Shown one piece after another: positions 1,823 to 32,900 of a DNA stretch of 44,865 nucleotides. The number at the start of each line of letters is the position of its first letter. Positions within the stretch are counted from its first letter, which is position 1. The translations under genes and the position numbers were made by a program. Below the pieces are notes generated by a model. That model had not been told where the DNA came from. It was given only the letters and a program-made list of their open reading frames with translations, and made no database searches. Source of the DNA: Betaproteobacteria bacterium (GTDB taxonomy: Bacteria; Pseudomonadota; Gammaproteobacteria; Burkholderiales; Usitatibacteraceae); assembly GCA_031404095.1 (NCBI GenBank), contig JANNGY010000289.1, forward strand, positions 1 to 44,865, in the 5' to 3' direction.

Positions 1823-2440
1823 ATGAAAAATATCAAATTCGCTTCTTTGTCGGCGGCCGTGTGCGTGTCGTTCGCGCAGTTTTGCGTTGCAGCGCAACCC
1901 TCGACGCCTTCGCAGGCTGAAATCGTCATGCTCGGGTCTTTCAAGGATCGGGGGCAAGCAAAAGTGGAGCGCTTGAATCAGGACGAGACTCAGCGTCTGT
2001 GTTCCCTATATCCCGTCAAGCGGCCCAAGGAAATGTCCGCGAAAATCGAAGCACTCAACATGAAGGCGATGAAGTATCCGGCGGATGGCAAGCTGCTGGG
2101 CGACTGGAAGGAGGGCGAAAAAATCGCGCAGTCGGGTGTCGGTATGCAATTCAGCGATGACCCAAAGAAACCAGCCGGCGCCAACTGCTACGCGTGCCAC
2201 CAGTTGTCCAAGGCGGAAATCTCGTTCGGCAACATGGGCCCGAGCCTCTACCATTTCGGCAAGCTGCGCGGCTTCAACGAGGCCAACCAGAAATACGCAT
2301 ACGGGAAAATCTACAACTCCCAGGCCTTCTCGGCGTGCACCAACATGCCGCGCTTCGGGCACAACGGCATCCTGACCGAGCAACAGATGAAGGACATCAC
2401 GGCGTTGCTGATGGATCCCGAATCGCCGGTAAACAAGTAG
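1823..2440 (+). CDS. soxX: SoxX, monoheme c-type cytochrome subunit of SoxAX
   Basis: The track ORF is 1817-2440 (GTG). ATG 1823 follows AAGGAG at 1812-1817. It has a signal peptide, one CYACH heme motif, and sits directly after soxA. Confidence 0.85.
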   Translation: MKNIKFASLSAAVCVSFAQFCVAAQPSTPSQAEIVMLGSFKDRGQAKVERLNQDETQRLCSLYPVKRPKEMSAKIEALNMKAMKYPADGKLLGDWKEGEKIAQSGVGMQFSDDPKKPAGANCYACHQLSKAEISFGNMGPSLYHFGKLRGFNEANQKYAYGKIYNSQAFSACTNMPRFGHNGILTEQQMKDITALLMDPESPVNK

Positions 2441-2450
2441 TTCGAATTCC

Positions 2451-2475
2451 AGCCCGGCGTGTCCGGGCTTTTTTG
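2451..2475 (+). terminator. Rho-independent terminator-like hairpin after soxX
   Basis: AGCCCGG-CGTGT-CCGGGCT (7-bp GC-rich stem) is followed by TTTTTT, 10 nt after the soxX stop. Confidence 0.6.
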
Positions 2476-2500
2476 CAGGCGTAAACTTAAGGAACCGGTT

Positions 2501-3019
2501 ATGAAGAGCACACCATCGGCCGCCATCGCAATCGGTACGCTTTCACTTCTGCTGTGTGGTATTCCAGTTACTCATGCCGCTGAGGCGGCGCCGACGTTCA
2601 GCGTCAAACTGCTGGCGCCAGAAACGGCATTGAAGGCCGCACAGGCCGCCCTGGCCAAATGTCGCAAGGATGGATTTCAGACGGCGGTGGCGGTGGTTGA
2701 CCGCGCCGGTGTGGTGCAGGTTGTACTGCGCGACCGTTACGCCGGCGCGCACACTCCCGACATGGCTGTCGCCAAAGCGTGGACCTCGGCCAGTTTCAAG
2801 CAGCCGACCACATTGCTCGCAATCGAGACGCAGCCCGGCAAGCCGATGAGCGGAGTTCGCCATTTGCCAAGAGTGATGCTGGCGGGTGGCGGGCTGCCAA
2901 TCGAGGCGGCGGGTAACGTGCTGGGCGCCATTGCCGTTTCGGGCGCGCCGAGTGGCGATGCGGATGATGTTTGCGCCAAGGCCGGCATCAAGGCCATTAC
3001 CGACGATATCGAATTCTAG
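2501..3019 (+). CDS. GlcG/HbpS-like (DUF336) heme-binding family protein with signal peptide
   Basis: The track ORF is 2459-3019. ATG 2501 follows AAGGAA and gives the signal peptide MKSTPSAAIAIGTLSLLLCGIPVTHA. The segments AVAVVDRAG..V..RD, AKAWTSASF and GGLPI...G..LGAIAVSGAPSG..D..CA match the GlcG/HbpS family. Confidence 0.75.
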   Translation: MKSTPSAAIAIGTLSLLLCGIPVTHAAEAAPTFSVKLLAPETALKAAQAALAKCRKDGFQTAVAVVDRAGVVQVVLRDRYAGAHTPDMAVAKAWTSASFKQPTTLLAIETQPGKPMSGVRHLPRVMLAGGGLPIEAAGNVLGAIAVSGAPSGDADDVCAKAGIKAITDDIEF

Positions 3020-3033
3020 AAGGTTCGGGGAGC

Positions 3034-4755
3034 ATGTCGAACCTGAGCCGTCGCGAATTTCTTCACTTGCTCGCAGTCGCCGGCGCGGGCGGGTTTGCGC
3101 TCGAGCACGGGACAGTCCTCGCTGCCAGCGGCAAGGCCTCATCACTTTACGATTTGCCGCGTTTCGGTAATGTGCACTTTCTACATATGACCGATTGTCA
3201 CGCGCAGTTGATGCCAATCTATTTTCGCGAACCGAACGTCAATCTTGGTATCGCCGGGTCAGCGGGACAGCCGCCCCATCTTGTGGGCGAGAAATTGCTG
3301 AAACAATTCGGCATCAAGCCGGGTAGCGCCGAAGCATACGCCTTCACTTATCTGGAATTCGAGAAAGCAGCGCGTACTTACGGAAAGGTCGGCGGCTTCG
3401 CGCATCTCGCGACCCTGGTAAAGCAATTGAAGGCGTCGCGACCGGGCGCTTTGCTGCTCGACGGTGGCGATACCTGGCAGGGTTCTGCCACGGCACTGTG
3501 GACCAAGGGGCAGGACATGGTCGATGCCGCCCTCGAACTCGGCGTCAATGTGATGACCGGCCACTGGGAATTTACTTTGGGAGACAAGCGGGTCAAGGAA
3601 ATCGTCGACAAGGACTTCAAGGGCAAGGTCGATTTCATTGCGCAGAACGTGCAGACGGCCGATTTTGGCGATCCGGTCTTTCCACCCTATGTGTTGAATG
3701 AAATGAACGGCGTGCCGGTGGCAATCATTGGCCAGGCATTTCCGTACACGCCGATTGCCAATCCGCGCTACCTCACGCCGGAATGGAGTTTTGGCATCAA
3801 GGAAGCGGAGTTGCAGAAAGTGGTCGACGAAGTCCGCGCCAAGGGCGTTCAGGTGGTGGTGCTGCTCTCGCACAATGGCATGGATGTCGATCTGAAACTG
3901 GCGTCACGCGTAACAGGTATCGACGCCATTCTTGGCGGCCACACGCACGATGGCGTGCCGGCGCCGGTCGCCGTCAAGAACAGCAAAGGCGTGACGCTGG
4001 TGACCAATGCGGGTTCAAACAGCAAGTTTCTCGGCGTTCTCGATTTTGACGTGAAGAACGGAAAGATTGCCGATTTTCGCTATCGCCTTCTGCCCGTCTT
4101 CGCCAACCTGCTGCCGGCCGACAAGAACATGGACGCGCTCATCACCAGGATTCGTGCGCCGTTTGAAGCAAAACTGGCGGAGAAACTGGCCATTACCGAA
4201 GGCCTGCTATACCGGCGCGGCAATTTCAACGGCACCTTCGACCAGTTGATTCTCGACGGGTTGATGGACGTGAAGGGCGCGGAGATGGCGTTTTCGCCGG
4301 GATTTCGCTGGGGCACGTCGCTGCTGCCCGGACAGGCCATCACCATGGAACACCTGATGGACCAGACGGCGATTACCTATCCGTACGCGACAGTGAACGA
4401 ATTTACCGGCGAGATGATAAAGACCATTCTGGAAGATGTGGCCGACAACCTGTTCAATCCCGATCCGTACTATCAGCAGGGGGGTGACATGGTGCGGGTC
4501 GGCGGATTGGCCTACACCTGCGATCCAAAGGGCAAGATGGGTGGCCGCATCAGCAACATGATGTTGAAAGGAAAGCCCATCGATGCCGCCAGAAAATACA
4601 GGGTCGCAGGATGGGCGCCGGTTGCCGAAGGCGCCAGTGGCGAGCCGATCTGGGAACTGATGGCGAGCTATCTGCGCGACAAGAAGACCATCCAGCCGAA
4701 AAAGCTGAACTTGCCGGAACTGATTGGAATGAAAGGCAATGCCGGGATTGCATGA
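3034..4755 (+). CDS. soxB: Thiosulfohydrolase SoxB (5'-nucleotidase/metallophosphoesterase family)
   Basis: The track ORF is 2971-4755. ATG 3034 gives a twin-arginine signal (SRREFLHLLAVAGAGG). Metallophosphoesterase motifs are present (HMTDCH, GGDTWQGS, GHWEF, LSHNG, GGHTHD). The protein of about 573 aa lies in sox context. Confidence 0.93.
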   Translation: MSNLSRREFLHLLAVAGAGGFALEHGTVLAASGKASSLYDLPRFGNVHFLHMTDCHAQLMPIYFREPNVNLGIAGSAGQPPHLVGEKLLKQFGIKPGSAEAYAFTYLEFEKAARTYGKVGGFAHLATLVKQLKASRPGALLLDGGDTWQGSATALWTKGQDMVDAALELGVNVMTGHWEFTLGDKRVKEIVDKDFKGKVDFIAQNVQTADFGDPVFPPYVLNEMNGVPVAIIGQAFPYTPIANPRYLTPEWSFGIKEAELQKVVDEVRAKGVQVVVLLSHNGMDVDLKLASRVTGIDAILGGHTHDGVPAPVAVKNSKGVTLVTNAGSNSKFLGVLDFDVKNGKIADFRYRLLPVFANLLPADKNMDALITRIRAPFEAKLAEKLAITEGLLYRRGNFNGTFDQLILDGLMDVKGAEMAFSPGFRWGTSLLPGQAITMEHLMDQTAITYPYATVNEFTGEMIKTILEDVADNLFNPDPYYQQGGDMVRVGGLAYTCDPKGKMGGRISNMMLKGKPIDAARKYRVAGWAPVAEGASGEPIWELMASYLRDKKTIQPKKLNLPELIGMKGNAGIA

Positions 4756-5720
4756 TGGTCGCGCGTTCAAGCAGGCTGTTTTTGTTCTTGCTGATCCTCG
4801 GTGCCCGCGTTGGCCTTGCCGGTGCTGCGGCTGCCGGGTTCCCGGCGCTTACGCCGCAGAAAGTTGCGCCGGATGTGTACCTGTTCCAGGGCAAGGCGGG
4901 TGCCGCCTCGCTGGAAAATCGCGGCTTCAATTCGAACGCGGGATTTGTCGTCACACGCGATGGTGTCGTGGTCATCGATGCGCTGGGCACGCCGGCATTA
5001 GGAGAGGCGATGGTCGCGGCGATCCGCAAGATCACCAGCAAGCCGATCCGCAAGGTTATCGTTACGCATTATCACGCCGATCACTTCTATGGGTTGCCGG
5101 CGTTCAAGAAGGCCGGTGCTGAAGTATGGGCACATCGCGATGCGCGCGAGTATCTCGACGGGCCCGATGGTGCCGCGCGGCTTGCGCAACGGCGCGCCGA
5201 TCTTGCGCCCTGGGTCGATGGTGCCACTCAACTGGTGCCGGCGGATGTGTGGCTGGACGGCAATCGTACGTTTAGTTTGGGGGGCACCAAGTTCGAAATT
5301 GTCCACCTGGGTCCGGCGCATTCGCCGGACGACATCATCATCGTGGTCGGAAATTCCGGTGTGATCTTTACCGGCGACATCCTGTTTACCGGCCGTATTC
5401 CCTTTGTGGGTGAAGCCGATAGCAAGCGTTGGCTGCAGACCTTTGCAAGATTGCTAGAACTCAAACCCCAAATCATGGTTACCGGACATGGTGAGCCTTC
5501 GCGCAATCCATCGGCAGACCTGGCGCTCACCAGGGACTACCTCACCTATCTTCGTCAGGTGATGGGCAGGGCGGTGGAGGATTTTGTGTCCTTTGACGAA
5601 GCCTACGCTGGCGCCGACTGGAGCCGTTTTGCCAAAATACCGGCTTTTGAAGCGGCCAATCGCATCAATGCCTACGGGACCTACCTGCTGATGGAGAGGG
5701 AATCGCTGTCGAAAAAATGA
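4752..5720 (+). CDS. Periplasmic MBL-fold metallo-hydrolase (SoxH-like)
   Basis: The track ORF is 4611-5720. ATG 4752 overlaps the soxB stop (ATGA) and gives a signal peptide (MMVARSSRLFLFLLILGARVGLAGA). It carries the HxHxDH motif (THYHADH) and a later GHG. SoxH of Paracoccus is an MBL-fold protein, so the SoxH-like label is inference. Confidence 0.8.
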   Translation: MMVARSSRLFLFLLILGARVGLAGAAAAGFPALTPQKVAPDVYLFQGKAGAASLENRGFNSNAGFVVTRDGVVVIDALGTPALGEAMVAAIRKITSKPIRKVIVTHYHADHFYGLPAFKKAGAEVWAHRDAREYLDGPDGAARLAQRRADLAPWVDGATQLVPADVWLDGNRTFSLGGTKFEIVHLGPAHSPDDIIIVVGNSGVIFTGDILFTGRIPFVGEADSKRWLQTFARLLELKPQIMVTGHGEPSRNPSADLALTRDYLTYLRQVMGRAVEDFVSFDEAYAGADWSRFAKIPAFEAANRINAYGTYLLMERESLSKK

Positions 5721-6259
5721 CTCTTGAATGTGCGGTCAAGCGGTGCTTGATATTGCAAGGTATGGCTGCACTGTCATTGTTCGCGTGGCCAATCGCTTCG
5801 CTGGCGCAATCGTCGCTCACGCCTGCGCGCGACCTGCCCGCAGATGCGAAACAGGTCGCGAGCAGTGGGGTGCCGCTGATTGTGCTGGTGAGCCTGCCGG
5901 GGTGTCCACATTGTGAAATTGTCAGACGGTCCCATTTGCTTCCGCTGTTGCGGGAAGGGCGCGCGCCGCTTAAGCCGCTAGTCAGGCAGATCGAGATGAA
6001 TGGCCGGGATGTCTTGCGGGACTTCGATGGACGGATGACCACGCACGGCGCATTTGCCAGCCGCCACAAGATCAGGATTGCACCTGTCGTGCTGTTTTTT
6101 GATGCTGCAGGTCAATTGGTCGCCGAGCCGCTGGTGGGCGCAATGATTCCCGATTTCTATGGCGCCTACTTCGATGCGGCACTAACCGAAGCCACGCTGA
6201 AAGTGCGAAGCGGGCGGGCTGGCAGGCTGTCGGACTTAAAGAATCGAAGCGAAATGTGA
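5717..6259 (+). CDS. Periplasmic thioredoxin-fold protein (SoxW/SoxS-like), CPHC active site
   Basis: The ATG overlaps the MBL stop (ATGA at 5717-5720). It has a signal-like N-terminus, a LPGCPHCE CxxC motif, and sits at the end of the sox block. Confidence 0.7.
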   Translation: MTLECAVKRCLILQGMAALSLFAWPIASLAQSSLTPARDLPADAKQVASSGVPLIVLVSLPGCPHCEIVRRSHLLPLLREGRAPLKPLVRQIEMNGRDVLRDFDGRMTTHGAFASRHKIRIAPVVLFFDAAGQLVAEPLVGAMIPDFYGAYFDAALTEATLKVRSGRAGRLSDLKNRSEM

Positions 6260-11393: not shown

Positions 11394-12173
11394 TTACTGA
11401 ACCGTTGGTACCGAATCAGCTGAATGTGTTTGGATCTCAATGCTGGTTGTCGCGTTGTTAAGGTGAGAAGTTTCTTTGGTCGTGGCTAGGCCGGGATCGA
11501 ATTCCGATTCATCGGTGGCCGCAGCCGGACACTCCGCCACCATCTGCGACGCATAATGAAGTTCGGCAATATCTTCCGCCAGGTACTGCAATTCCGATTG
11601 GCGCGTCATTCGCATCAACGCCGGGTTACGTTCGTCACCACCGGCTGAGACCAGTAACCTTCCGCCGATCTTGAGTTGCGACCTTAGCGATTCCGGGATC
11701 TCCGGAAGTGTCGCTGATACCATGATCGCGTCGTAAGGCGCGTGGTCCGGCCAGCCGCGGGCGCCGTCGGCGTGCCGTACATGCACGTTTCGGCATCCAA
11801 TGGCGGCCAGCGCGGCGGCCGCCTTTTCAGCTCGCTGGCCGACGCGCTCAACGGTGTAGACGTCTGCGGCAATGTGTGAGAGAACGGCGGATGAATAGCC
11901 TGTCCCGGTGCCGATTTCGAGGACTTTCTCCCCGCCCTTGAGGCATAGCTCCTCAATCATCCGCGCCACAACATAGGGCTGTGAAATGGCTTGCCCCTCG
12001 GCAACCGCTAGCGACGCATCCTGATAGGCTAATTCGCGAAGGTGCAACGGCAGAAAGACCTCGCGCGGGACCGCCTGAATTGCCTCAAGCACCAACTGCG
12101 ACTCAATGCCGTGGCCGGCGATATGATTTTCAACCATTGCACTACGCCGTTGCGAAAAATTGATCTTGTTCAT
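11394..12173 (-). CDS. pcm: Protein-L-isoaspartate O-methyltransferase paralogue with C-terminal extension
   Basis: 259 aa. It carries VPREVFLP, QAISQPYVVARM, the SAM motif VLEIGTGTGYSSAVLS, and YDAIMVSA. About 45 extra acidic and polar residues follow the core. Confidence 0.85.
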   Translation of the reverse strand: MNKINFSQRRSAMVENHIAGHGIESQLVLEAIQAVPREVFLPLHLRELAYQDASLAVAEGQAISQPYVVARMIEELCLKGGEKVLEIGTGTGYSSAVLSHIAADVYTVERVGQRAEKAAAALAAIGCRNVHVRHADGARGWPDHAPYDAIMVSATLPEIPESLRSQLKIGGRLLVSAGGDERNPALMRMTRQSELQYLAEDIAELHYASQMVAECPAAATDESEFDPGLATTKETSHLNNATTSIEIQTHSADSVPTVQ

Positions 12174-12828
12174 TTTTTACCTTCATGAAAGGGCCGCAGA
12201 GTCGCGGTCTGTTGCTCATTGCCAGGTCTTCGCTTCAATCGTGCCGGATGCGTGCAACACGTCGGCCTTCAATTGGCACGCCGCGCGGAAGCGGAGAGCC
12301 CTTCAGCCCAGGAGCCGTTGCGGCCGGCAATTGCCACGCCTGCGAAGAAGTGCAACTCGTGGTGGCGGAATCCTCCATTGCCAACTGCTCCGTTCAGTAT
12401 TGATGCTCGGTGGCGGGCTGCTTTGACTTGCGTCAAGCAATGCGCGCGAACCACGAGACGCGGCGTGATGAGAGTAAATTCAGTAGCGCCTGGCCGTTGC
12501 CAGTGTGGCGTGGATCAGGCACGCGAGCGCCTGATCCCTGCCGACCTTCAGTGGCAACTCGCCAGTTGGTGCGTCCAGCAGGTGAAAATGGCCCCAAACG
12601 CCGCACCGGTGCTGGAGTTTGCCATTTTTATGGCGTTGAAATGACTTGCGCCGTTCAGTGGCCCACGTCTATCAGTTATGCTCTCTCCGGGGAATCCCAA
12701 TTCGTGTTGCCGACGCATATCCAGACCCGAGTCACATGCCCGTTTTCCATCGACTTGCCGTGTATCACTCGCCAATGCGGTTGAAGGCCTGCCGCCGACA
12801 TTCGCGCTTCGAGACGGACTGAGCGGGT

Positions 12829-14796
12829 ATGTGTGGAATCGCCGGGATTCTGAGTTCTGCAACAGGTCGTCCGCCCGAGCGCGGCGAACTCGCAGCGATG
12901 ATCGGCCGGCTTCACCACCGCGGGCCCGATGGCAGCGGATTTCTGATGGATGGCCCGGTCGGACTGGCGCATGCGCGCCTCAGCATTATCGATTTGGCCG
13001 GTGGCCAGCAGCCGATCCACAATGAAGGCCGCAACACCTGGGTCGTATTCAACGGCGAGATATTCAACTATGTAGAGCTTCGTCGTGACCTAGAGGCGCA
13101 AGGGCACCGGTTTTACACGCACACTGACACTGAAGTCATTGTTCACCTCTATGAGCAATACGGTGAGAAGTTTGTCCAATACCTCAATGGCCAGTTCGCG
13201 ATTGCGCTCTGGGATGCGCTGCGGCAGACGCTGATACTGGTGCGCGATCGCACCGGAATACGCCCACTTTTTTATGTCGAAGCGGCCGGACGGCTGTTGT
13301 TTGCATCCGAGATCAAAGCGTTGTTTGCGCTTCCTGGTGTGCCGCGGCGGATTCGCCCGCAGGCATTGGCTGAAATCTGCACTTACTGGTCTCCGCTGGC
13401 GCCGCTCACTTCTTTTGAAGGTGTACTTTCACTTCCGCCAGGCCACTTAATGGTTTTGAGTAATGGCGTCCGGCGAATCAGTCAATATTGGGATTGGGAA
13501 TTTGCGAAGGCTGTCCAGCACGCTTCGCGAACCGAGACGGAACTTGCGCATGAATTGCGCGAGTTGCTTATCGATGCGGTAAAACTGCAGTTGCGCGCGG
13601 ACGTTCCGGTCGGTGCCTACCTTAGCGGCGGACTGGATTCCTCGATCATCACTTCGATCATTCACAATTTTACCGACACCCCACTGCGCACCTTTTCGCT
13701 CACCTTCGAGGATGCGGAATTTGACGAAAGCGTGTACCAGCAAGAATTGGTCGCGTACCTCGGCACCGATCACACTTCGCTGCGGTGTACTCGCGCGGAT
13801 ATCGCCGCGGCATTTCCACGCACAATTTTCCACACCGAAACGCCGGTCGTCCGCACGGCGCCGACACCGCTGATGCTGTTATCGGGCCATGTTCGCGCGT
13901 CGGGCTACAAAGTGGTTCTGACCGGTGAGGGCGCGGATGAAGTATTTGGCGGCTATGACCTTTTCAAAGAGGCAAAGATTCGCCGCTTCATGGCGCGAGT
14001 ACCGGGTTCAACAATGCGTCCGCGAATCCTCGAGCGGCTCTATCCCTACCTGAAGCACTCTCCCGCGTCCGGTCGTGCGTTCAGCGAAACTTTTTTCAGG
14101 GAAGGCTCGGAACATATTGCCGAGCCTTTCTTTGCGCACATTCCGCGCTGGACAACGACGCGGCGTATCGGGCAGTTTTTTTCCGACGAGTTGCGCACTT
14201 CAATTGGCGCATGGGATCCATATGCGGCGATTGTGGCGACGCTTCCGGCGGGAATTGGCGGTTGGCTACCGATGGGTCGCGACCAATATGTGGAGGCACA
14301 CACGCTCATGACCGGGTATCTGCTGTCCTCCCAGGGAGACCGCGTGGCCATGGCCAATTCCATCGAGGGTCGTTTTCCGTTCCTGGACCATCGTCTCATT
14401 GAGTTCGCCAATCGGCTCCCGCCACAACTCAAGTTGCATGGATTGACTGAGAAATACCTCCTGAAGAAGGCGATGACCGGCCTGCTTCCCGAGAACGTGC
14501 GCACGCGCACGAAACAACCCTACCGCGCGCCGGACAGTCAGAGCTTTTTCAATGCGGGCACGCCGGTTGACTACGTCGCCGAGCAGTTCAGCCGCTCGAG
14601 GATTTCCGCGGCGGGATTCTTCGATCCGGACGCGACCGCCAAGTTGTTCGAAAAGTGCCGCGCCGGACGGGTCATCGGTTTTGCAGATAACATGGCGTTC
14701 GTTACCATCCTGTCAACTATGTTGCTGCACGAACAGTTCATCCTTGGGCGCGGTTTGGATGTACCGGGTGCGTCACCCCAAGTCTCCGTCGCATAG
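12829..14796 (+). CDS. Asparagine-synthase-family glutamine-dependent amidotransferase (AsnB-like)
   Basis: 655 aa. It starts MCGIAGI (Cys2 is the Ntn-glutaminase nucleophile) and has GPDG, HARLSIIDL and NGEIFNY motifs. The PP-loop AYLSGGLDSS is in the synthetase domain. It is the first gene of the five-gene cassette. Confidence 0.9.
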   Translation: MCGIAGILSSATGRPPERGELAAMIGRLHHRGPDGSGFLMDGPVGLAHARLSIIDLAGGQQPIHNEGRNTWVVFNGEIFNYVELRRDLEAQGHRFYTHTDTEVIVHLYEQYGEKFVQYLNGQFAIALWDALRQTLILVRDRTGIRPLFYVEAAGRLLFASEIKALFALPGVPRRIRPQALAEICTYWSPLAPLTSFEGVLSLPPGHLMVLSNGVRRISQYWDWEFAKAVQHASRTETELAHELRELLIDAVKLQLRADVPVGAYLSGGLDSSIITSIIHNFTDTPLRTFSLTFEDAEFDESVYQQELVAYLGTDHTSLRCTRADIAAAFPRTIFHTETPVVRTAPTPLMLLSGHVRASGYKVVLTGEGADEVFGGYDLFKEAKIRRFMARVPGSTMRPRILERLYPYLKHSPASGRAFSETFFREGSEHIAEPFFAHIPRWTTTRRIGQFFSDELRTSIGAWDPYAAIVATLPAGIGGWLPMGRDQYVEAHTLMTGYLLSSQGDRVAMANSIEGRFPFLDHRLIEFANRLPPQLKLHGLTEKYLLKKAMTGLLPENVRTRTKQPYRAPDSQSFFNAGTPVDYVAEQFSRSRISAAGFFDPDATAKLFEKCRAGRVIGFADNMAFVTILSTMLLHEQFILGRGLDVPGASPQVSVA

Positions 14797-14802
14797 GCGC
14801 AT

Positions 14803-16380
14803 ATGAGCACCGCGCATCACTCGCTTGTCCACGAGCCTTTTTTCGAAACCGCCGCGCGTCTGCCAGAAAAGGTCGCGTTGGCCAGTGATGGCAGTCGCCA
14901 TACCTATTCCGACCTGGCGTTGCATGCTGGTCAACTCGCGGCGCTGTTGGCTGGATGTGGCATCCAACGTGGTGACCGCGTGGCGCTGTTCCTCGATAAC
15001 AGCGTGGAGTTCGTCATTGGTCTGCTGGCCGCTTCCAGCATCGGTGCGGTATTCATGCCGGTGAGCGGCCTCACAAAAAAGGAAAAACTCGCCTATCTGC
15101 TCAACGATGCGCGCGCCAAGGTGCTCATCACCCATGCGGCGCTCCGGGCAACCTGGGCAGACGCGTTGGCCGTCAACACAAGTGTGAGCCTGTGCCTGGT
15201 CGTCGACGGTGGCCTGGATTGCACCCACGTTGAGCCGCGCTGCCAGCCGTTTCCGCAAGCGGACCCTTTGCCCGATCTGGCAGCGGCCTGCGTTACTGGT
15301 TTGTCGACAGCGAACGAAGAAGATCTTGCAAGCATTATCTATACGTCCGGATCGACTGGCGACCCGAAGGGCGTGATGCTGACGCACCGAAACATGATGT
15401 CCGCGCTTCGCTCGGTAATGGCATACCTGCCCATTCGCGAAGACGATGTGATCCTGTGCGTACTCCCAATGGCATTTGGATACGGACTCTATCACTGGCT
15501 GCTCACCGCGAAAGTGGGCGCCACACTGATTCTTGAGGGTTCGTTCGCGTTTCCACTCAAGGTAGTGCAGCGTATGGCGGCTGAGCGCGTGACTTTCTTC
15601 CCTGGTGTGCCGTCAATATTTACGCAGCTAATCAATGTCAAGGGCTTGGACCAGTTCGACCTTTCCGCATTGCGCGTCTTCACCAATGCAGCCGCAGCCA
15701 TATCTGAAGAACATATCCGGCGGTTACGCCTGGCGTTTCCCGAGGCCGAGTTCTACTCGATGTATGGGCTTACTGAATGCAAGCGGGTGACCTATCTGCC
15801 ACCCGCGCAACTTGACACCATACCTGGCAGCGTAGGGCGTGGCATGCCCTATCAGGATCATTGGCTCGCCGACGAATGTGGCGAACCTCTTCCGTTCGGC
15901 TGCACCGGGGAATTGGTGGTTCGTGGACCGCATGTGATGCGTGGCTACTGGGAAAAGCCCGAACAGACCGCCGAGCGACTCAAGCCTGCGCCGGCATCGA
16001 GTCCATTTGCCGGTGAACTGGTGCTGCACACGGGTGACCTGTTTCGCACGGACGAAGACGGATGGCTCTATTTCGTCGCGCGCAAGGACGATATTGTCAA
16101 GACTCGCGGCGAAAAGGTCAGTCCGCGCGAAGTCGAGAACGCCATATACGCGCTGGGCGAAGTACTTGAGGTGGCAGTAATCGGAACGCCGGACGAGCAA
16201 CTCGGCGCGGCCATCAAGGCTTTCATCATACTTCGACCCGGCGCGAAGCTGAATGAGCGCGATGTTATTCGCCATTGTCTGTCGCGTCTGGAGTCCTTTA
16301 TGGCGCCGAAGTATGTAGAATTCGTAACCGAGCTGCCAAAAACCGATACTGGCAAGATCAAGAAGTCCAACCTTCGCTAA
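14803..16380 (+). CDS. ANL-superfamily adenylating enzyme (AMP-dependent synthetase/ligase)
   Basis: 525 aa, starting 6 nt after the AsnB-like stop. Core motifs are IIYTSGSTGDPKGVMLTH, YGLTE, GELVVRGPHVMRGYW, HTGD, KTRGEKVSPREVE and PKTDTGKIKK. Confidence 0.9.
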   Translation: MSTAHHSLVHEPFFETAARLPEKVALASDGSRHTYSDLALHAGQLAALLAGCGIQRGDRVALFLDNSVEFVIGLLAASSIGAVFMPVSGLTKKEKLAYLLNDARAKVLITHAALRATWADALAVNTSVSLCLVVDGGLDCTHVEPRCQPFPQADPLPDLAAACVTGLSTANEEDLASIIYTSGSTGDPKGVMLTHRNMMSALRSVMAYLPIREDDVILCVLPMAFGYGLYHWLLTAKVGATLILEGSFAFPLKVVQRMAAERVTFFPGVPSIFTQLINVKGLDQFDLSALRVFTNAAAAISEEHIRRLRLAFPEAEFYSMYGLTECKRVTYLPPAQLDTIPGSVGRGMPYQDHWLADECGEPLPFGCTGELVVRGPHVMRGYWEKPEQTAERLKPAPASSPFAGELVLHTGDLFRTDEDGWLYFVARKDDIVKTRGEKVSPREVENAIYALGEVLEVAVIGTPDEQLGAAIKAFIILRPGAKLNERDVIRHCLSRLESFMAPKYVEFVTELPKTDTGKIKKSNLR

Positions 16381-16407
16381 GCGGAGTGCTGGTGGCGGCA
16401 CAGCAAG

Positions 16408-16692
16408 GTGTTCAAAATGGGAGCCAGGCAGATGCAAGACGTGAAGCAGGCCGTTCGCCAATTTCTGCTCGATAACTTCCTGATGGGGAGCAGCGCGACT
16501 ATCGCCGACGATGCGTCGTTCATGAGGGGGCACGTGCTTGACTCCAGCGGCTTCATGGAACTGGTTCTTTTTCTCGAGGAGTCTTTTGGCGTCAAGGTCG
16601 AGGACGCGGAACTGATGCCCGAAAACCTCGACAGCCTGGAAAACATTCAGGCATACGTCGCGCGCAAGCGCGCATCACCTGCGGCTGCATAG
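16408..16692 (+). CDS. Free-standing acyl/aminoacyl carrier protein (PP-binding)
   Basis: 86-94 aa. The track start is GTG 16408, and ATG 16432 (MQDVKQAVRQFLL..) is preceded by GGGAG. A phosphopantetheine-type serine sits in HVLDSSGFMELVLFLEE. The protein is acidic and helical. Confidence 0.75.
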   Translation: MFKMGARQMQDVKQAVRQFLLDNFLMGSSATIADDASFMRGHVLDSSGFMELVLFLEESFGVKVEDAELMPENLDSLENIQAYVARKRASPAAA

Positions 16693-16714
16693 CCCAGCGC
16701 CGGAGCAGAATCCT

Positions 16715-17701
16715 TTGGCAACAATTGCCTTGCATTCCGGGGTTTTCGACCTTGACTATACGCTGGAGGCCGATCGCATTGCGGCGCGAATGATCGAGGT
16801 TGTCGGCCGCGAATTGCGTCGACGCGGTGTGGTGATTGCGATGTCAGGTGGTATAGACAGTTCGGTGTGCGCGGCACTGGCGGTACGCGCATTTGGCACC
16901 AAAGTCTACGGACTGATGCTGCCGGAACACGATTCGTCCGCGTTCAGCCTGCATCGGTCGACGATACTCGCCAAGCATCTTGGCATCACATTTGGCGTTG
17001 AGGGCATCGGTCCCACGCTCGAGGCGCTTGGCTGCTACCGTTGGCGCGACGAAGCCATACGCGCCGTGTTTCCGGATTACGGTGCGGGATGGAAGAACAA
17101 GATCATCATCGCCGGTGGCAAGGAGGGATCCTTCAACTACTTCAAACTGGTGGTACAGGACCCCGAGGGCAGACTGCTTGAATCGCGCTTGCCGGTGCGT
17201 GAATATCAGCAGATAGTAGCCGCAACCAACTACAAGCAGCGGGTACGCAAAACGGTCGAATATTTTCATGCCGACCGCCTGAATTATGCCGTGATCGGTA
17301 CGCCGAATCGCCTCGAATACGACCAGGGGTTCTTCGTCAAGAATGGCGATGGCGCGGCTGACCTGAAGCCGATCGCGCACCTTTACAAAACACAGGTATA
17401 CGCGATGGCCAGACATCTGGGCCTGCCAGATGAGATTTGCAATGCGATTCCCACTACCGACACCTACAGTCTCCAGCAGGGTCAGGACGAGTTCTACTTT
17501 GCGCTGCCTTACGACAAGATGGATTTCGCGCTTTGGGCATTCAATCATGCCGTGCCGTCGGCTGAACTGGCGCACTTTCTCGCACTGCCTCTGGAGCAGG
17601 CCGCTTTCATTTACACGGACATTGTCGCCAAACGCCGCGCAACGCGGTATCTGCATGCTGCCCCGGTTTTGATGGAACCGGTGACGGAGATTTCGAATTG
17701 A
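16715..17701 (+). CDS. NAD+ synthetase (NadE)-like PP-loop ATP pyrophosphatase, no glutaminase domain
   Basis: 328 aa with a TTG start 22 nt after the carrier-protein stop. The PP-loop is VIAMSGGIDSSVCAAL. Downstream KQRVR, GT.N..E, D..PI and LYK..V resemble NadE. Confidence 0.8.
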   Translation: MATIALHSGVFDLDYTLEADRIAARMIEVVGRELRRRGVVIAMSGGIDSSVCAALAVRAFGTKVYGLMLPEHDSSAFSLHRSTILAKHLGITFGVEGIGPTLEALGCYRWRDEAIRAVFPDYGAGWKNKIIIAGGKEGSFNYFKLVVQDPEGRLLESRLPVREYQQIVAATNYKQRVRKTVEYFHADRLNYAVIGTPNRLEYDQGFFVKNGDGAADLKPIAHLYKTQVYAMARHLGLPDEICNAIPTTDTYSLQQGQDEFYFALPYDKMDFALWAFNHAVPSAELAHFLALPLEQAAFIYTDIVAKRRATRYLHAAPVLMEPVTEISN

Positions 17702-17853
17702 CGTCGCTTGCCGCATATGTCGAATGAACCAGCAAGGTGATGAGTGAGCGTCCCGCAAACATTCTGCCGCCATGACGATGGTGAATTGCACTTATGGCAC
17801 TTGTTGTTGCCATTTCGTGCCGCGATTTCTAACGGCCGCCTGGCATAGCTGTC

Positions 17854-18957
17854 ATGGCGAGTTTCCTTCCGCCGCTTGCTGCCGCGACAGTTGAGCCGCC
17901 CAGTCAGTCAGCCTACCAGACAACTTTGGCGGACTTGGCGGTCGATGCGGACAAGATTGTCGCGTTATGGCGAACCGGACTGAGCCAACGTGCCATGCCG
18001 GAAGTCAAACTTGAGTGGTATTACCGGAACAACCCGGAAGGCACTCCGCTAACCGTGTTCCTGAATCAGGTCGGTACCGAGGAGGCCGTCGGCGTCGCGG
18101 CGATCGGGCCGCGAAGAGTTCGATTCGGTACATACACACTACAGGCGGGCGCGCTGGTCGATTTTGTTACGCTTCCGGAACACCGGACTTTCTTTCCGGC
18201 GATGTTTCTGCAACGGGAAATGCGCCGTCGCGCGCTTGGCAAATACACCGTCGTGTTTGGCTTCCCAAATGCGAATTCGCAGCCCATTGTGCGTCGCGTC
18301 GGATATCGATGCGTCGGTCAAATGATTCGCCGCACCCGCGTACTCCGTTCCAGCACATATCTCGCCAAGTACCTGCCGGGCTGGTTGAGTCGAATTGCCG
18401 GCGCCGTGGTTGATGCGAGCCGCTGGACCGCCCTCAGGATTCACGGGCTTGGAGAGAATGACTTTCAATATACGTGGCAGGGTCGTGCGGATGAAACTTT
18501 TGACGGCTTATGGCAGCGCACCGCTGGCGCGAACGTGGTCATGGGGGTGCGCGACGCGGCATTTCTCAATTGGCGTTTTGCAGACATGCAGTCAAAATCA
18601 TTCCGGTTCTTCACGATGAAGTCGTTCGCTGACCGGAGCCTGATAGCGTACGCAGTCTGCTCAGCAGATGGTGGCGCACTCCATGTTGAAGATTTTCTCG
18701 TTGATCTGAGACTGCCGAACGCAAGCGCAAACCTGTGGCGCAGTTTGTCGCTGGCAGCTATTCGCATGGATTACAGCAGCCTGTCTGTCGAACTCCTGGG
18801 CAGCGAAGATCAACAAAGGTTGCTTGGTGCCGCAGGATTTCACGTTCGAGAAGGTAGACCAGTTTACGCCTCCGTGGCGCCACTGCCCGCCGGACAATCT
18901 GGTGGGCTGACAGATGGCTCCGCCTGGTACATGACCTCGGCGGACGATGACTGGTAA
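17854..18957 (+). CDS. GNAT / FemAB-like (two-lobe acyltransferase fold) protein
   Basis: 367 aa. An N-terminal GNAT-like core (GVAAIGPRRV.., GALVDFVTLPEHR, FPNANSQPIVRRVGY) is followed by a second lobe ending LGAAGFHVREG. There is no clear SD before the ATG, and a 152-nt gap separates it from the NadE-like gene. Confidence 0.6.
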   Translation: MASFLPPLAAATVEPPSQSAYQTTLADLAVDADKIVALWRTGLSQRAMPEVKLEWYYRNNPEGTPLTVFLNQVGTEEAVGVAAIGPRRVRFGTYTLQAGALVDFVTLPEHRTFFPAMFLQREMRRRALGKYTVVFGFPNANSQPIVRRVGYRCVGQMIRRTRVLRSSTYLAKYLPGWLSRIAGAVVDASRWTALRIHGLGENDFQYTWQGRADETFDGLWQRTAGANVVMGVRDAAFLNWRFADMQSKSFRFFTMKSFADRSLIAYAVCSADGGALHVEDFLVDLRLPNASANLWRSLSLAAIRMDYSSLSVELLGSEDQQRLLGAAGFHVREGRPVYASVAPLPAGQSGGLTDGSAWYMTSADDDW

Positions 18958-18985: not shown

Positions 18986-21025
18986 ATGCCCATCCTGACG
19001 TATCCCGACTCCCCGTACAAACTTAACCAGCCCTTTCCGCCTGCCGGCGACCAGCCGAAGGCCATCGAGAAACTGGTCGAGGGCATCAATGACGGGTTGG
19101 CATTCCAGACACTGCTGGGAGTGACCGGGTCGGGCAAGACCTACACGATGGCCAACGTGATTGCGCAACTCGGCCGGCCGGCACTGATCATGGCACCGAA
19201 CAAGACACTCGCTGCGCAACTTTATGCCGAGATGAAGGAGTTTTTTCCCGAAAATGCGGTGGAATACTTTGTGTCGTACTACGATTACTATCAGCCCGAA
19301 GCCTATGTGCCTGCGCGCGACCTGTTCATCGAAAAGGACTCTTCGATCAATGAACATATAGAACAGATGCGCCTGTCGGCAACCAAGTCGCTGCTGGAAC
19401 GCCAGGACGCAATCATCATCGCCTCGGTATCGTGCATCTACGGCATCGGGGATCCGAGTGATTACTATTCGATGCGCATGCTGGTGCGGCCCGGCGACAA
19501 GGTCGCGCAACAAGACATGATTCGGCAATTGTCATCGATGCAATACACAAGGGCAGAACTCGATTTCAAGCGCGGTACGTTTCGCGTGCGCGGCGATTCA
19601 CTGGACGTGTTTCCCGCGGAGAGTGCGGATGCCGCGCTGCGTATTTCGATGTTCGACGAAGAAGTGGACGCGCTAACCCTGTTCGACCCGTTGACCGGGC
19701 ACACGATCCAGAAAATCCCCCGATTCACGGTGTACGCCAAGAGCCACTATGTGACGCCACGCAGCACCGTGTTGAACGCCCTGGACGGCATCAAGGCCGA
19801 GCTGCGCGATCGCATCGATTTCTTCACCCGCGCAAACAAGCTGATCGAAGCACAGCGTATCCAGCAGCGCACCACTTTTGATCTGGAAATGCTGAACGAA
19901 ATCGGATTCTGCAAGGGTATCGAGAATTATTCGCGGCATTTGAGCGGGCGCAAGCCCGGCGAGCCGCCGCCGACGCTGGTGGACTACTTGCCGAAAAATG
20001 CGTTGATGGTGATAGACGAAAGTCATGTCACGATTCCACAGGTCGGCGGCATGTACAAGGGCGATCGGGCCCGCAAGGAGAACCTGGTCGATTACGGCTT
20101 CCGGTTGCCGTCCGCCATGGACAACCGGCCGTTACGATTTGATGAATTTGAGGGCATGATGCGGCAGACCGTTTTCGTTTCCGCCACGCCCGCCGACTAT
20201 GAGGCCAACCATACCGCGCAGGTCGTGGAACAACTTGTGCGCCCGACCGGACTGGTGGATCCCGTCCTTCATGTTCGACCGGCGTCGACCCAGGTCGATG
20301 ATTTGCTCTCGGAAGTGAACAAACGCATCGCGGTCAGGGAGCGCGTGCTGGTGACCACGCTTACCAAACGTATGGCCGAGGACTTGACTGATTACCTGGC
20401 CGAGCACGGCGTCAAGGTGCGCTATTTGCATTCCGACATCGATACCGTTGAGCGCGTAGAGATCATTCGTGACCTGCGCGGCGGATTGTTCGACGTACTG
20501 GTGGGCATCAATTTGTTGCGCGAAGGACTGGATATTCCGGAGGTATCGCTGGTCGCCATACTCGACGCTGACAAGGAAGGCTTCCTGCGCGGCACCCGAT
20601 CGTTGATCCAGACCATCGGTCGCGCGGCACGCCATGTTAACGGCACCGCGATCCTGTATGCCGACCGCGAAACCGAATCCATGCGCAATGCCATTGGTGA
20701 GACTGAGCGGCGGCGCACCAAGCAAATTGCCTACAATCTCGAGCATGGTATCGTGCCGACGTCGATTTCGAAACAGATCAAGGACATGATTGACGGTGTC
20801 TACGATATGGACGAAAAGCGCGATGAGCGCAAGGCTGCGCAGGAGCGCAAGAAATACGATGTGCTATCCGAGAAGCAGATGGAGACGGCGCTGAAACGCA
20901 TTGAGCGCGAGATGCTGGATGCAGCGCGCAACCTGGAGTTTGAACGGGCGGCCGCGTTGCGTGATGAACTCAAGGCGCTACGAAACCGGTTGCTGGTGGT
21001 AGGAGGTTCCGCGGTCCGCGATTAG
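18986..21025 (+). CDS. uvrB: Excinuclease ABC subunit B
   Basis: 679 aa with GDQPKAI, the Walker A motif GVTGSGKT, the DESH box, helicase motifs, and the C-terminal UVR domain ([17 protein letters not shown]). Confidence 0.97.
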
Positions 21026-29946: not shown

Positions 29947-32900
29947 ATGGTGCGAAACCAAAACTACGACAAGGCATCGGCAAGCGCCATCAAGGGTGAT
30001 CCAGTGTCCGCTGCGCCTGGCGCCACGGCGATCAAAACGCCCGCGACCTCCGCGTCCAGCATAAACCTGCGAATTATTGCCGGTTTCGCGATTATCACGC
30101 TGGCAGTCGCCTTGGTCATCGGCGTCATCGCGACGCGAATTGGCTCGGATGCCGGTCTGCCGGTTGAACTGGCCGATCGGATGCGCAATCAGTTGCTATG
30201 GTGGGGATTCGGCGCCGTGCTGCTGGCGGCTCTGCTGGGGGCGATATTTGCCCGCCACGTTGGCGAACCGATTCGACGATTGACCGAGCGCCTGCAACTC
30301 GAGGATTTTCGCGATTTTGCCGCCAGCACCGGAAAGCATCGCGAATTTGCCGAGCTCGAGCAACTTACCCGCACCATCAACAAGCTGGCCGGATCTGTTC
30401 GCGCGCGTGAAGTGGAACTCCTGGAAAGCGAACGCAAGTTCAGGGAAGCGTTCGATCTGGTCGGAGTTGGCCTGACCCAGGTGAATCGTGAAGGGCGCTT
30501 CACGCTCGTGAATCGGCGGTTTTGTGAAATGCTGGGCTACAGTGCGGACGAATTGGTTGGCAAGCGCTTTGTCGATGTCACGCATCCTGACGATCGGCAC
30601 GCGGATGAAAGCCTGATCCGGGACACGGTTGAAAACCGGAAGTTGGTGCCGATCGCCAAAGAAAAGCGTTACGTGCGCAAGGATGGTTCGGTGATGTGGG
30701 CAAGGCGATCCGGGGTGATTGTCCGTGATCAGGCAGGCGAGCCGGTGTATGCGTTGGGGTCGATTGAAGACATCTCGCAATCTCGGGCTTCGCAGGAAAC
30801 CCTGCAGGCCCTCAACGAGTCATTGAAGGCGGTGGTTGAAACTTCCCCGCTGGCGATCTACTCGGTTACTCCGAACGGCATTGTTACCCTCTGGAATCCG
30901 GCTGCGGAAAAAATGTTCGGTATAAGCAAGGAGGCTGCGCTCGGTAAGGGCTCGCCGCTTACCGGGCACGGCAATGTCGATCGCGCGCTGGAATTGCGGC
31001 GCCGTGTCATGGCCGGCGAGACAATTTACAACTATGAAATCACCCGTACACGCGACAACGGTGCCGAAATCACTATCAGCATCTCGGCAGCGCCTCTACG
31101 CGGCGCAACCCATGAAATTATCGGCGTACTGGTTACCTGTAGTGACATAACGGGACTCAAGGAAACGTCGCGCGCACTCGACCAGCAGTTGCATTTCACC
31201 CAGGAGCTTCTCGAAGTCATGCCGTCGCCGATATTCTATCGTCGCGCCGAAGGCGCCTACCTGGGTTTCAATCGGGCTTGGGAGATATTTTTTTCCAAGC
31301 GGCGTGAAGAATGGATTGGCAAACGGCCGCAGGATTTCTTGCCACCCGAGGCGGCTACCATGGCCGAAATAGAGGACCGAGAAGTGCTCACCACCGGCAG
31401 GACCAGTGTCGCCGAGGTGGTCATCAGGGACGGGCACGGGACGGATCGCCATGTCGTCAGGCACATCAGCCGGTTCACAGACGCCGATGGCCGGCCGGCG
31501 GGCGTCATTGGCGTCCTGACTGACATCACCGACTTCAAGCAGGTTGCGCAGGCGCTCGTGGCCTCGGAAGGGCGCTTCAAGGCATTGACCGAAAGCGCCA
31601 TGGACATTGTGACCGTGCTGGATGCGGAGGGATTCATTCGCTATCAAAGTCCATCGGTCAAACACCTGCTTGGCTATGAGCCCGCGGCGATGATCGGCCT
31701 GTGTCAATTCGATCTTGTGCATCGCGAAGATGCGGAGACAATGCGCGGGGCCTTCCAGCAACTCCTTTCGCGCGGCCAGATGGAGCGTGCCGTCGAATTT
31801 CGCGTTCTTCGCAGCGATGGCGAATGGCGCACGCTCGAGGCGATAGGCAAGAATTGCCTTGACGTCGCCGAGGTGCGCGGAATTATCGTCAATACCCGCG
31901 ACATCACCGACCGCAAGAACATCGAAGAGCGAATTCAGCACCTCGCGTACCACGACGCGCTCACCGGCTTGCCAAACCGGTCACTGATGCAGGATCGTGT
32001 GTCACAGGCGATTGGCCGGGCCGATCGCTCGACCAAGCGATTTGCTGTGATGTTCATCGACATTGACAACTTCAAGAACATCAATGACACGCTGGGACAT
32101 GATGTCGGCGACGAATTGTTGCGCCAGGTGGCGGCGAGGCTGATCGATTCGGTGCGTACCCATGACACCATCGCCCGCCAGGGCGGCGACGAATTTATCG
32201 TGCTGCTTGATCAATTGGAAGGCCATCAGGGTGCGACCCGTGTGGCACAGAAAATTCTTGATGCGCTGCGCGTGGCATTCCAGGTCGGCGGGATCGACCA
32301 GCATGTGTCGGGTTCGATCGGCATTGCCCTTTATCCGGACGACGGCCGTGACCCGCCGACATTGCTGAAGAACGCAGACACCGCAATGTTTCACGGCAAA
32401 GCGCTCGGAAAAAATACTTACCAGTTTTTCACTCCGCAAATGAACATTGCCGTCAAAAGGCGCGCGGCGATGGAATCGAATTTACGGGCGGCCGTGAAGA
32501 ATGGCGATTTCACGCTGGTGTATCAGCCGCAAATCGATCTCAACAGCGGCGAAATAGTTGCCTTTGAAGCGCTGGTGCGCTGGGTGTCCGAGGACAGCGG
32601 CACCATGATGCCCGGTGAGTTCATACCGCTCGCTGAGGAAACGGGACTTATCAACGACATCGGCGAATGGGTGCTAAGGGAGGCCTGCCGGCAGGCGGTC
32701 GTATGGAAAAAGGCGGGGTACCCGGCAAGAAGGATGGCAATCAACCTTTCCGCCCGGCAGCTATCGGACAAGGGTTTTGTCGAACTGCTGGTGGAAATAC
32801 TCAGGGAAACCGGTCTCGATGCCAATGCACTGGAGCTGGAGATAACCGAAAGCCAGGTCATGCGGCAGGGTGAGGGGCAGCGTCATGCTGCTCAATGAAA

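Follow-up and report, generated by a model that had tools for sequence, protein, structure and literature searches.

What pathway is encoded by five adjacent genes that bring together two PP-loop enzymes, an adenylating ligase, a carrier protein and an acyltransferase, and whose surroundings hold no genes of a recognisable pathway to which they could belong? The question is raised by positions 12829-18957 of a 44,865-nucleotide (nt) stretch of the genome of a Betaproteobacteria bacterium (GenBank assembly GCA_031404095.1, contig JANNGY010000289.1, positions 1 to 44,865, forward strand), which we call the window. The same set recurs in dozens of unrelated genomes, so the presence of the five genes together is not due to chance. 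At its core the recurring module has an ANL adenylate-forming ligase with its own carrier protein and an enzyme of the NadE family, and an AsnB-type amidotransferase is usually there as well; a GNAT acyltransferase and a HemK-family methyltransferase are optional members. We put at about even the chances that the five genes are an orphan, methyltransferase-free copy of a widespread carrier-dependent module that produces an acyl group with an amide on it and links this to an amine.

The coordinates, motifs and gaps given in the preliminary description of this DNA were confirmed in a list of open reading frames (ORFs) with translations, which places five + strand ORFs upstream of uvrB (18986-21025). 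Gene 1 (12829-14796, +) encodes an AsnB-type glutamine-hydrolysing amidotransferase of 655 aa, in which a Cys2 glutaminase domain at the N terminus is combined with a PP-loop synthetase domain. It is followed by gene 2 (14803-16380, +), for a 525-aa ANL adenylate-forming ligase, and gene 3 (16408-16692, +), for a free-standing acyl carrier protein (ACP) of 94 aa as an ORF, with its phosphopantetheine serine in LDSSGF. Gene 4 (16715-17701, +) encodes a 328-aa PP-loop ATP pyrophosphatase of the NadE family that lacks a glutaminase domain, and gene 5 (17854-18957, +) a cytoplasmic tandem-GNAT acyltransferase of 367 aa. From gene 1 to uvrB, the gaps measure 6, 27 (or 51), 22, 152 and 28 nt. The translations contain each of the quoted motifs: MCGIAGI and SGGLDSS in gene 1, YTSGSTGDPKGV, GEKVSPREVE and PKTDTGKIKK in gene 2, LDSSGF in gene 3 and SGGIDSS in gene 4. 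The domain assignments made earlier were also right: Pfam and NCBIfam return GATase_7 with Asn_synthase, AMP-binding and NAD_synthase, as well as PP-binding and Acetyltransf_9 matches that are weak and fall under their cut-offs.

Gene 1 matches GATase_7 (E 5e-46), GATase_6 and Asn_synthase (E 1e-97) in Pfam and passes the model for glutamine-hydrolysing asparagine synthase (TIGR01536, 511 bits, cut-off 267). Its MCGIAGI start is that of a class II glutaminase with a Cys nucleophile, and SGGLDSS forms the PP-loop; 47 of 47 module orthologues keep the MCG N terminus with its Cys2 nucleophile. Among solved structures, the hydroxyamidotransferase TsnB9 (7ylz) and E. coli AsnB (1ct9) come closest. 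Two more specific models are not reached: the amidotransferase of XrtA/PEP-CTERM systems (TIGR03108, 447 bits, cut-off 817) and the N-acetylglutaminylglutamine amide (NAGGN) amidotransferase (TIGR03104, 360 bits, cut-off 570), and there is no ATP-grasp gene, the partner in the NAGGN system, inside the cassette. Gene context argues for an acceptor carboxylate other than that of aspartate.

Gene 2 has the N- and C-terminal domains of the ANL superfamily (AMP-binding PF00501, E 6e-91; AMP-binding_C PF13193, E 4e-19) along with the core motifs YTSGSTGDPKGV and PKTDTGKIKK, the latter with the C-terminal catalytic Lys. Its best NCBIfam match is the exosortase A-associated acyl-CoA ligase (TIGR03098), at 434 bits below the cut-off of 592; it also falls short of the long-chain fatty-acid ligase model (390 bits, cut-off 476) and of the nonribosomal peptide synthetase (NRPS)-type adenylation domain (TIGR01733, 262 bits, cut-off 317). 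Among solved structures it lies nearest to the adenylation (A) domains of LgrA, to VinN (3wvn), which is the best full-length match at 234 bits, and to malonyl-CoA synthetase (4fuq). The Asp of the A4 motif, which binds the amino group of the substrate in NRPS-type enzymes, is replaced by Gly in gene 2, where FGYG aligns with LgrA FDIS. The substrate pocket was read at this one position, from the LgrA alignment.

The adjacent gene 3 is an acyl or peptidyl carrier protein, and gene 2 is predicted to load it. Twelve ACP models match at E<0.01, and the Pfam PP-binding score of 19.7 bits lies slightly under the gathering score of 20.8. The best NCBIfam matches, both below cut-off, are the OlsHI-associated ACP (57.7 bits, cut-off 130) and AmcB (52.7 bits), which are carrier proteins served by stand-alone loading enzymes. 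Because the family models begin aligning at residue 9, the likely start is the ATG at 16432, which gives a protein of 86 aa. The serine in DS(T/S)G is found in nearly all of 56 orthologues, with one DSMG, as judged by the 25 commonest motif variants.

Gene 4 belongs to the NadE subfamily by sequence and fold. It matches NAD_synthase in Pfam, passes the NCBIfam subfamily model 'NAD(+) synthase' (NF002048/PRK00876, 473 bits, cut-off 313) and has the SGGIDSS PP-loop. Its AlphaFold model (predicted local distance difference test score, pLDDT, 81) is matched best in Foldseek by NH3-dependent nicotinamide adenine dinucleotide (NAD) synthetases and by a Francisella nicotinamide mononucleotide (NMN) synthetase, with target-normalised template-modelling (TM) scores of 0.75-0.79. 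Compared with Pyrococcus horikoshii NadE it carries an insertion of about 50 residues, residues 104-171 spanning what are residues 89-104 there. Part of this insertion is a three-stranded sheet at about residues 127-158, which is conserved and absent from solved NadE structures. The PP-loop and NadE signature residues are invariant across the NadE-like orthologues; the signature residues of gene 4 were judged by eye against the P. horikoshii alignment and Bacillus subtilis numbering. With thousands of close relatives at 70-87% identity, the protein is conserved far better (60-87% identity) than the ligase (30-64%) or the GNAT (20-47%).

Gene 5 had been described as a protein of GNAT/FemAB size. 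The GNAT part of this holds by fold: the AlphaFold model (pLDDT 90.5, predicted TM score 0.87) contains two GNAT folds in one chain. By sequence, in contrast, there is no FemAB or TIGR03019 match and no NCBIfam match at all at E<=0.01, and the sole Pfam match, to Acetyltransf_9, is weak (19.3 bits, cut-off 25). Full-length Foldseek matches are N-myristoyltransferases (E 3e-14, TM about 0.5), Eis-like tandem GNATs (TM about 0.6) and the clavulanate tandem GNAT 2wpw, and the enzyme is predicted to take its acyl group from the carrier protein. A word-indexed search with 41 relatives gave the impression of a rare family, which proved to be a sensitivity artefact: an exhaustive profile search gives 2,454 clusters at E<=1e-30. 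Among the relatives in that search, three (P0165, P0170 and P0227) are fused to a HemK-like methyltransferase, and another (P0309) is fused to an alpha/beta hydrolase that resembles 'hydrolase 2, exosortase A system-associated'.

When one genome per species was scanned, close relatives of the NadE-like protein, none below 60% identity, turned up in at least 591 loci, which belong to Beta- and Gammaproteobacteria, Myxococcota, Gemmatimonadota, Verrucomicrobiota, Desulfobacterota and others. Gene content was followed by tblastn with the window proteins in a set of 88 loci (designated by L numbers), made up of the 80 best matches to the window NadE-like protein and loci collected earlier. The ligase lies in the same contiguous block as the NadE-like gene in about 80 of the 88, the carrier in about 70 and AsnB in about 50, or more if contig ends are allowed for; a homologue of gene 5 (20-47% identity) flanks the module in 29 loci and the HemK-like methyltransferase is part of the block in 18. 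There are two gene orders, AsnB-ligase-ACP-NadE, as in the window, and AsnB-ACP-ligase-NadE. The preliminary description had treated the genes as a unit, which these neighbourhoods bear out. It had also presented the NadE-like enzyme as a feature of a compact orphan version, and there it has to be corrected: this enzyme is the most conserved and most constant member, and is found in versions embedded in exopolysaccharide (EPS) loci as well.

In two of the closest relatives, L088 (72%) and L001 (47% gene 5 identity), the identical five genes occur in identical order and synteny with the window extends through uvrB-LMWPc-MarC. The set is also present in a Kofleriaceae genome at 30% identity, with gene 5 inverted. 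L089 (62%) and L090 (51%) have a sixth gene, for a HemK-family methyltransferase, exactly at the place of the 152-nt gap between genes 4 and 5 of the window (17702-17853), and the methyltransferase likewise stands between the NadE-like and GNAT genes in L007 and L008. The optional methyltransferase scores 194-199 bits on the model for the release-factor glutamine methyltransferase, which has a cut-off of 199.1.

The presence of the methyltransferase goes together with the residue that the ligase has at the A-domain Asp position. Over 75 module ligases this residue is Ser in 40, Asp in 18, Ala in 10, Gly in 3, Asn in 2, Thr in 1 and Val in 1. It is Asp in every locus with a methyltransferase and a scored ligase (18 loci), where the ligase of the sister loci reads FDYG, and none of the 57 non-Asp loci has a methyltransferase. 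The residues of L088, L089 and L090 were predicted before inspection and confirmed: L088, which has no methyltransferase, has Gly, and L089 and L090, which have it, have Asp. The rule does not hold for L003, a frameshifted assembly. The window groups with L088 and L001 in neighbour-joining trees of both the ligase and the NadE-like protein, as a Gly-type clade without the methyltransferase that is sister to an Asp-type clade with it, so the window represents a derived subtype. The covariation suggests that the subtypes differ in the acid that they activate and that those with the methyltransferase use an amino acid. The acid of the window subtype probably has no amino group such as the sister subtype binds and, by means of its methyltransferase, would methylate.

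What surrounds the module in other genomes gives an indication of the acceptor. All flanking ORFs within 8 kb were clustered and the recurrent clusters annotated. A PgaB-like polysaccharide N-deacetylase is found in 18 loci, 12 of them with the GNAT, and an XrtA-type polysaccharide deacetylase in 9; a deacetylase is also present in 10 of 23 GNAT-bearing loci. Other recurrent neighbours are GT4 (15 loci) and GT2 (14) glycosyltransferases, a tyrosine kinase (12), a priming sugar transferase (12), Wzz-like (10) and Wzy-like (8) proteins, a PEP-CTERM-type outer-membrane protein (10), polysaccharide export proteins (8), a hexapeptide acyltransferase (8), an ATP-grasp protein (8) and a FabH-like ketosynthase (6). 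In some GNAT-free loci the hexapeptide acyltransferase takes the place of the GNAT. As a lower bound, at least 31 of the 70 loci with enough flank lie in a polysaccharide or XrtA/PEP-CTERM neighbourhood, and L006 is a clear XrtA/PEP-CTERM locus. The cassettes of the window, L001, L088, L089, L090, L003 and L004, on the other hand, are orphan copies. The earlier statement that the cassette has no pathway context is thus true of the window, which has no glycan or export genes, and does not extend to its homologues elsewhere. Homologues that always lay in EPS loci with an assigned product would have spoken against a new arrangement; they lie there often, not always, and we found no assigned product, which weakens the earlier finding without refuting it.

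From the observed gene set, domains, folds, co-conservation and usual neighbours, we infer a three-step pathway. ANL enzymes that have a free carrier protein as neighbour load it with an acid as the thioester, AsnB and NadE enzymes convert carboxylates to amides via acyl-adenylates, and enzymes of the GNAT fold, some of which use acyl-ACP as donor, acylate amines. Gene 2 would accordingly adenylate a carboxylic acid, in the window subtype probably not an alpha-amino acid, and transfer it to the phosphopantetheine on the serine of the dedicated carrier. The acid would next have one or two of its free carboxylates turned into carboxamides, probably while tethered: the AsnB-type enzyme would take ammonia from glutamine, and the NadE-family enzyme would adenylate a carboxylate and use ammonia that possibly comes from AsnB. 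In the last step, in the cytoplasm, the tandem GNAT would take the completed acyl group off the carrier and place it on an amine. Since deacetylase and glycosyltransferase neighbours recur and a hexapeptide acyltransferase replaces the GNAT in some loci, the acceptor is most likely a de-N-acetylated amino sugar, which could be nucleotide- or lipid-linked and destined for an exopolysaccharide or other envelope glycan encoded elsewhere in the genome. This order of events, in which an acid is loaded, amidated and moved to an amine, was already put forward in the preliminary description; the neighbours found in other genomes help it, and it is still the best reading of the chemistry.

Published pathways offer precedents for each half of this logic. 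In the Wbp/Vim linking-sugar pathway of Porphyromonas gingivalis, the deacetylase VimE, the tandem-GNAT aminoacyl transferase VimA and the AsnB-like uronamide former PGN_1234 act on a sugar (PMC7468200), and its authors proposed similar chemistry for XrtA loci. Common to that pathway and our scheme are the removal of an N-acetyl group, the re-acylation of the sugar amine by a tandem GNAT and the formation of an amide by an AsnB homologue. The Vim pathway has, however, no ligase, carrier or NadE-like enzyme, its amide is formed on a uronic acid, and VimA is placed near the FemAB-related family TIGR03019 (PMC7468200), outside which gene 5 falls. The other half has its counterpart in wfpC-G of Flavobacterium psychrophilum, where an O-polysaccharide-specific ACP and an acyltransferase act on UDP-Qui2NAc4N (PMC6519341). 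There, a dedicated ACP in a glycan locus bears a special acyl group that an acyltransferase moves to an amino sugar, and some module loci also have a FabH-like ketosynthase or a hexapeptide acyltransferase. A further case of carrier-dependent N-acyl decoration in an O-antigen locus is that of the tetronate genes rfbK-O of Vibrio cholerae O1. The acyl groups of the wfp and rfb systems are built by fatty-acid-type chemistry, and these systems have neither AsnB- or NadE-like amidation nor a tandem GNAT.

A free ACP loaded with an acidic substrate by a stand-alone adenylation enzyme, as in VinN/VinL (3-methylaspartate), resembles genes 2 and 3; in AmcH/AmcB, a free ACP is loaded with 2-oxoglutarate. 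Both differ from the module in belonging to polyketide-type pathways without amidotransferases, and the window ligase lacks the amino-binding Asp. Gene 4 shares PP-loop, fold and signature motif with NadE and with the Francisella variant (3fiu, named NMN synthetase in the PDB), which suggests by analogy that the NadE family can change substrate. It differs from them in its conserved insertion and in the near-obligate linkage to a ligase and carrier.

The best specific-family matches of genes 1 and 2 are to the accessory set of XrtA/PEP-CTERM loci, which comprises TIGR03108, TIGR03098 with an ACP, a decarboxylase, hydrolases and TIGR03019. The link to PEP-CTERM/exosortase A systems drawn in the preliminary description is real, although the scores are under the cut-offs: homologous modules lie inside XrtA loci beside the XrtA deacetylase, ATPase and outer-membrane protein, and a relative of gene 5 is fused to a hydrolase of the exosortase A type. 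In L006, inside such a locus, the AsnB copy reaches 462 bits on TIGR03108 and the ligase 484 bits on TIGR03098. Because these copies miss the cut-offs as well, we take the module to be a set paralogous to the XrtA accessory genes. It differs from that set in having a NadE-like enzyme and no pyridoxal phosphate-dependent decarboxylase, in its gene 5, and in the window in the lack of exosortase and EPS genes. The NCBIfam families of the accessory set are labelled hypothetical equivalogs and assign no product. In literature on NAD synthase, ACP, asparagine synthase, EPS, PEP-CTERM and the TIGRFAM families we found no paper that describes the module or its product; as far as we found, the general logic is familiar, and the obligate NadE-family member and the defined module are undescribed.

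Several observations weigh against this reading. The window has no sugar, export or exosortase genes, nor do its closest relatives up to 10 kb from the cassette, so the acceptor has been extrapolated from more distant loci, and in at least 39 of the 70 informative loci clustering recognised no polysaccharide neighbour. These counts were made on ORFs from a simple greedy caller and on loci sampled as the best 80 matches. In glycan loci, uronic acids are known substrates of AsnB homologues (PMC7468200), and by analogy the carboxylate amidated by gene 1 may be that of a sugar uronic acid and not, as in our scheme, that of the tethered acid. The NadE signature residues kept in gene 4 leave room for activity on nicotinic acid adenine dinucleotide. 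Nor does the scheme explain why one acyl group would need two amidating enzymes.

The lack of nearby glycan genes, which extends to the window, L001, L088, L089, L090 and L004 within 10 kb, would be expected if the orphan cassettes made a free small molecule, that is, an amidated acyl-amino compound serving as a compatible solute, signal or metal-binding agent and not as a glycan decoration. The NAGGN pathway pairs an AsnB homologue with a GNAT enzyme, gene 1 resembles TIGR03104, and in L004 an asparaginase and an aspartase/fumarase-type lyase flank the cassette. The TIGR03104 score is, however, well under the cut-off and the ATP-grasp partner is missing, the cassette has no exporter, and a stoichiometric carrier would be an unusual route to an abundant solute. 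A TonB-dependent receptor adjoins the cassette in L001 and L090, but it looks like an independent insert, since its side differs, it travels with a small protein of its own and it is absent from the window and L088. We consider a free product unlikely. Modification of proteins, in which the GNAT would acylate a protein amine and the HemK-type enzyme of the sister loci would methylate a protein glutamine or amine, maybe on PEP-CTERM surface proteins, is less likely again. It would agree with the frequency of the module in XrtA/PEP-CTERM loci, with the near-threshold scores of the methyltransferase on the release-factor model and with the N-myristoyltransferases that are the best structural matches of gene 5; the TM scores to these are nevertheless lower than to the Eis-like small-molecule acetyltransferases, gene 5 is cytoplasmic, and no gene for a target protein is conserved beside the module. 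The covariation of the methyltransferase with a residue of the ligase substrate pocket moreover points to a small acyl substrate, not a protein, as the methyltransferase target.

Lipid genes and O-acyltransferases do not recur beside the module, whereas glycan genes do, and this makes it quite improbable that the product is an amino-acid-containing lipid, for which the carrier would have to bear a fatty acid supplied by the ligase, the GNAT would acylate the nitrogen of an amino acid and the amidotransferases would cap its carboxylates. GNAT-fold enzymes that make N-acyl amino acids from acyl-ACP do exist, and the top family of the carrier is an ornithine-lipid-associated ACP, with the ligase at 390 bits on the fatty-acid model; both scores are under their cut-offs, and the OlsH ornithine-lipid pathway requires no ACP and so is unrelated to the module (PMC12493201). 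The idea to which we give least credence is that gene 4 is simply the NH3-dependent NAD synthetase of the cell and that its position has no pathway meaning. Its fold, its signature residues and its passing the 'NAD(+) synthase' cut-off would fit, but ligase and carrier adjoin it in about 80 of 88 loci, in several phyla and in two gene orders, one metagenome-assembled genome (MAG) has two copies, each in its own module, and the conserved extra sheet is not seen in solved NadE structures. Because the linkage and the sheet argue against it, a housekeeping role in NAD synthesis is doubtful for gene 4.

Returning to the carrier-dependent acylation of an amine, a bolder version concerns the NadE-like enzyme itself. 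Other PP-loop enzymes form amidines or nitriles. The 'NAD(+) synthase' subfamily of PRK00876 type, with its at least 591 loci, may be no NAD synthetase and instead a PP-loop enzyme that acts on a carrier-tethered acyl group and would either amidate a carboxylate or convert an AsnB-made amide to an amidine or nitrile; the resulting undescribed nitrogen-rich acyl substituent on an amino sugar could be an attachment point or decoration in exosortase/PEP-CTERM systems. We offer this tentatively and think it a good deal less likely than the general scheme.

The DNA around the cassette in the window consists of sulfur-oxidation and housekeeping genes. Upstream lie sox-like genes, a tRNA and Usp, DksA-like, CBS and PCMT genes, and downstream uvrB, LMWPc, MarC, a DsbA-like gene, RNase E, a PAS-GGDEF-EAL protein and a plsX-fab cluster. 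No glycosyltransferase, exosortase, exporter, NRPS or polyketide synthase gene, or other glycan or export gene, is present in the 44.9-kb window, nor are the PEP-CTERM-associated proteins and EPS assembly genes that mark an XrtA/PEP-CTERM EPS locus. The sulfur-oxidation set (950-6259) encodes a SoxA-type cytochrome, a cytochrome c, a SoxB-like protein of the 5'-nucleotidase family, a metallo-beta-lactamase-fold protein and a thioredoxin-like protein; it is also found upstream of the cassette in L001 and L090. The protein encoded at 29947-32898 is a cyclic-di-GMP turnover protein of 983 aa with four PAS domains followed by GGDEF and EAL. PCMT (protein-L-isoaspartate O-methyltransferase; 11394-12173, - strand) has 259 aa compared with 225 aa in L088, and the additional C-terminal tail could be either real or the result of a start/stop difference.

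Between PCMT and gene 1 lies a non-coding, ORF-poor gap of 655 nt (12174-12828), the presumed location of the promoter. Compared with L088, the closest relative, it is conserved only in about 40 nt at the start codon and in about 50 nt further upstream (12389-12438). An Rfam scan of the gap gave no match at the gathering score and none at E<=1, and this empty result and the scant conservation speak against a riboswitch or other RNA element there. Sigma-70-like sites and intrinsic terminators are no more numerous than in shuffled controls; no sigma-54 consensus site was found upstream of gene 1, and the whole window has fewer matches to it than shuffled sequence. Terminator prediction gave none in the 152-nt gap, and tblastn detected no remnants of the HemK-like gene or of a 187-aa ORF of L088 in the gaps of the window.

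Other features of the module loci deserve mention. The FabH-like ketosynthase III adjoins the module in L021, L023, L030 (5149-6255), L048, L060 and L079, the L030 copy lying directly upstream of AsnB, which suggests that some module variants extend the carrier-bound acyl group. The large subunit of a molybdenum hydroxylase (MoCoBD, xanthine/aldehyde oxidoreductase type) adjoins AsnB, in variable orientation, in six loci of different sulfur-oxidising lineages (L003:3504-5018, L017:5285-7438, L028:3632-5884, L064:3538-5718, L086:3687-5894 and L026:3099-6668). A protein of about 270-300 aa without a Pfam or NCBIfam match adjoins the NadE-like gene in L010, L022, L031, L041 (10439-11254), L042, L066 and L081; all seven loci are without the tandem GNAT, and four of them also have the hexapeptide acyltransferase. 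In L003 (5074-9954) the cassette is broken into short calls, with an AsnB of 525 aa, a ligase split in two and a fragmentary NadE-like gene, through long-read assembly frameshifts or decay. The MAG JAEZCN01 contains two separate module copies, L039 and L046. In four loci from Desulfobacula, Krumholzibacteriia and Fibrobacteraceae (L058, L063, L070 and L074), a NadE-like protein of 60-64% identity occurs with no ligase, carrier or AsnB homologue detected within 10 kb.

The TonB-dependent receptor is preceded by a small protein in both places (L001:11793-13886 with L002:11384-11731; L090:1682-3775 with L090:1192-1602). The small protein has no family match and shows the motifs LLxAQLWAL..VP.H..AHA, GC.DW.AAF and FLARAPPR. 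The receptor was considered as a partner of the cassette, with a siderophore in mind, and rejected: the side of the cassette on which it stands in L001 is the opposite of that in L090, it comes with its own small protein, and it is missing from the window and L088.

If the scheme is true, the 'NAD synthase' of hundreds of genomes bears the wrong name and is part of a pathway that decorates glycans or amines, and metabolic reconstructions of NAD synthesis would be affected. The module is defined (ligase, carrier, NadE-like enzyme and AsnB, with an optional methyltransferase and tandem GNAT) and open to in vitro work. The accessory genes of PEP-CTERM/exosortase systems were described in 2006, and the module may bear on their chemistry; the module would be of more interest if the substrates of the NadE-like enzyme prove to be carrier-tethered or the product has to do with exosortase chemistry.

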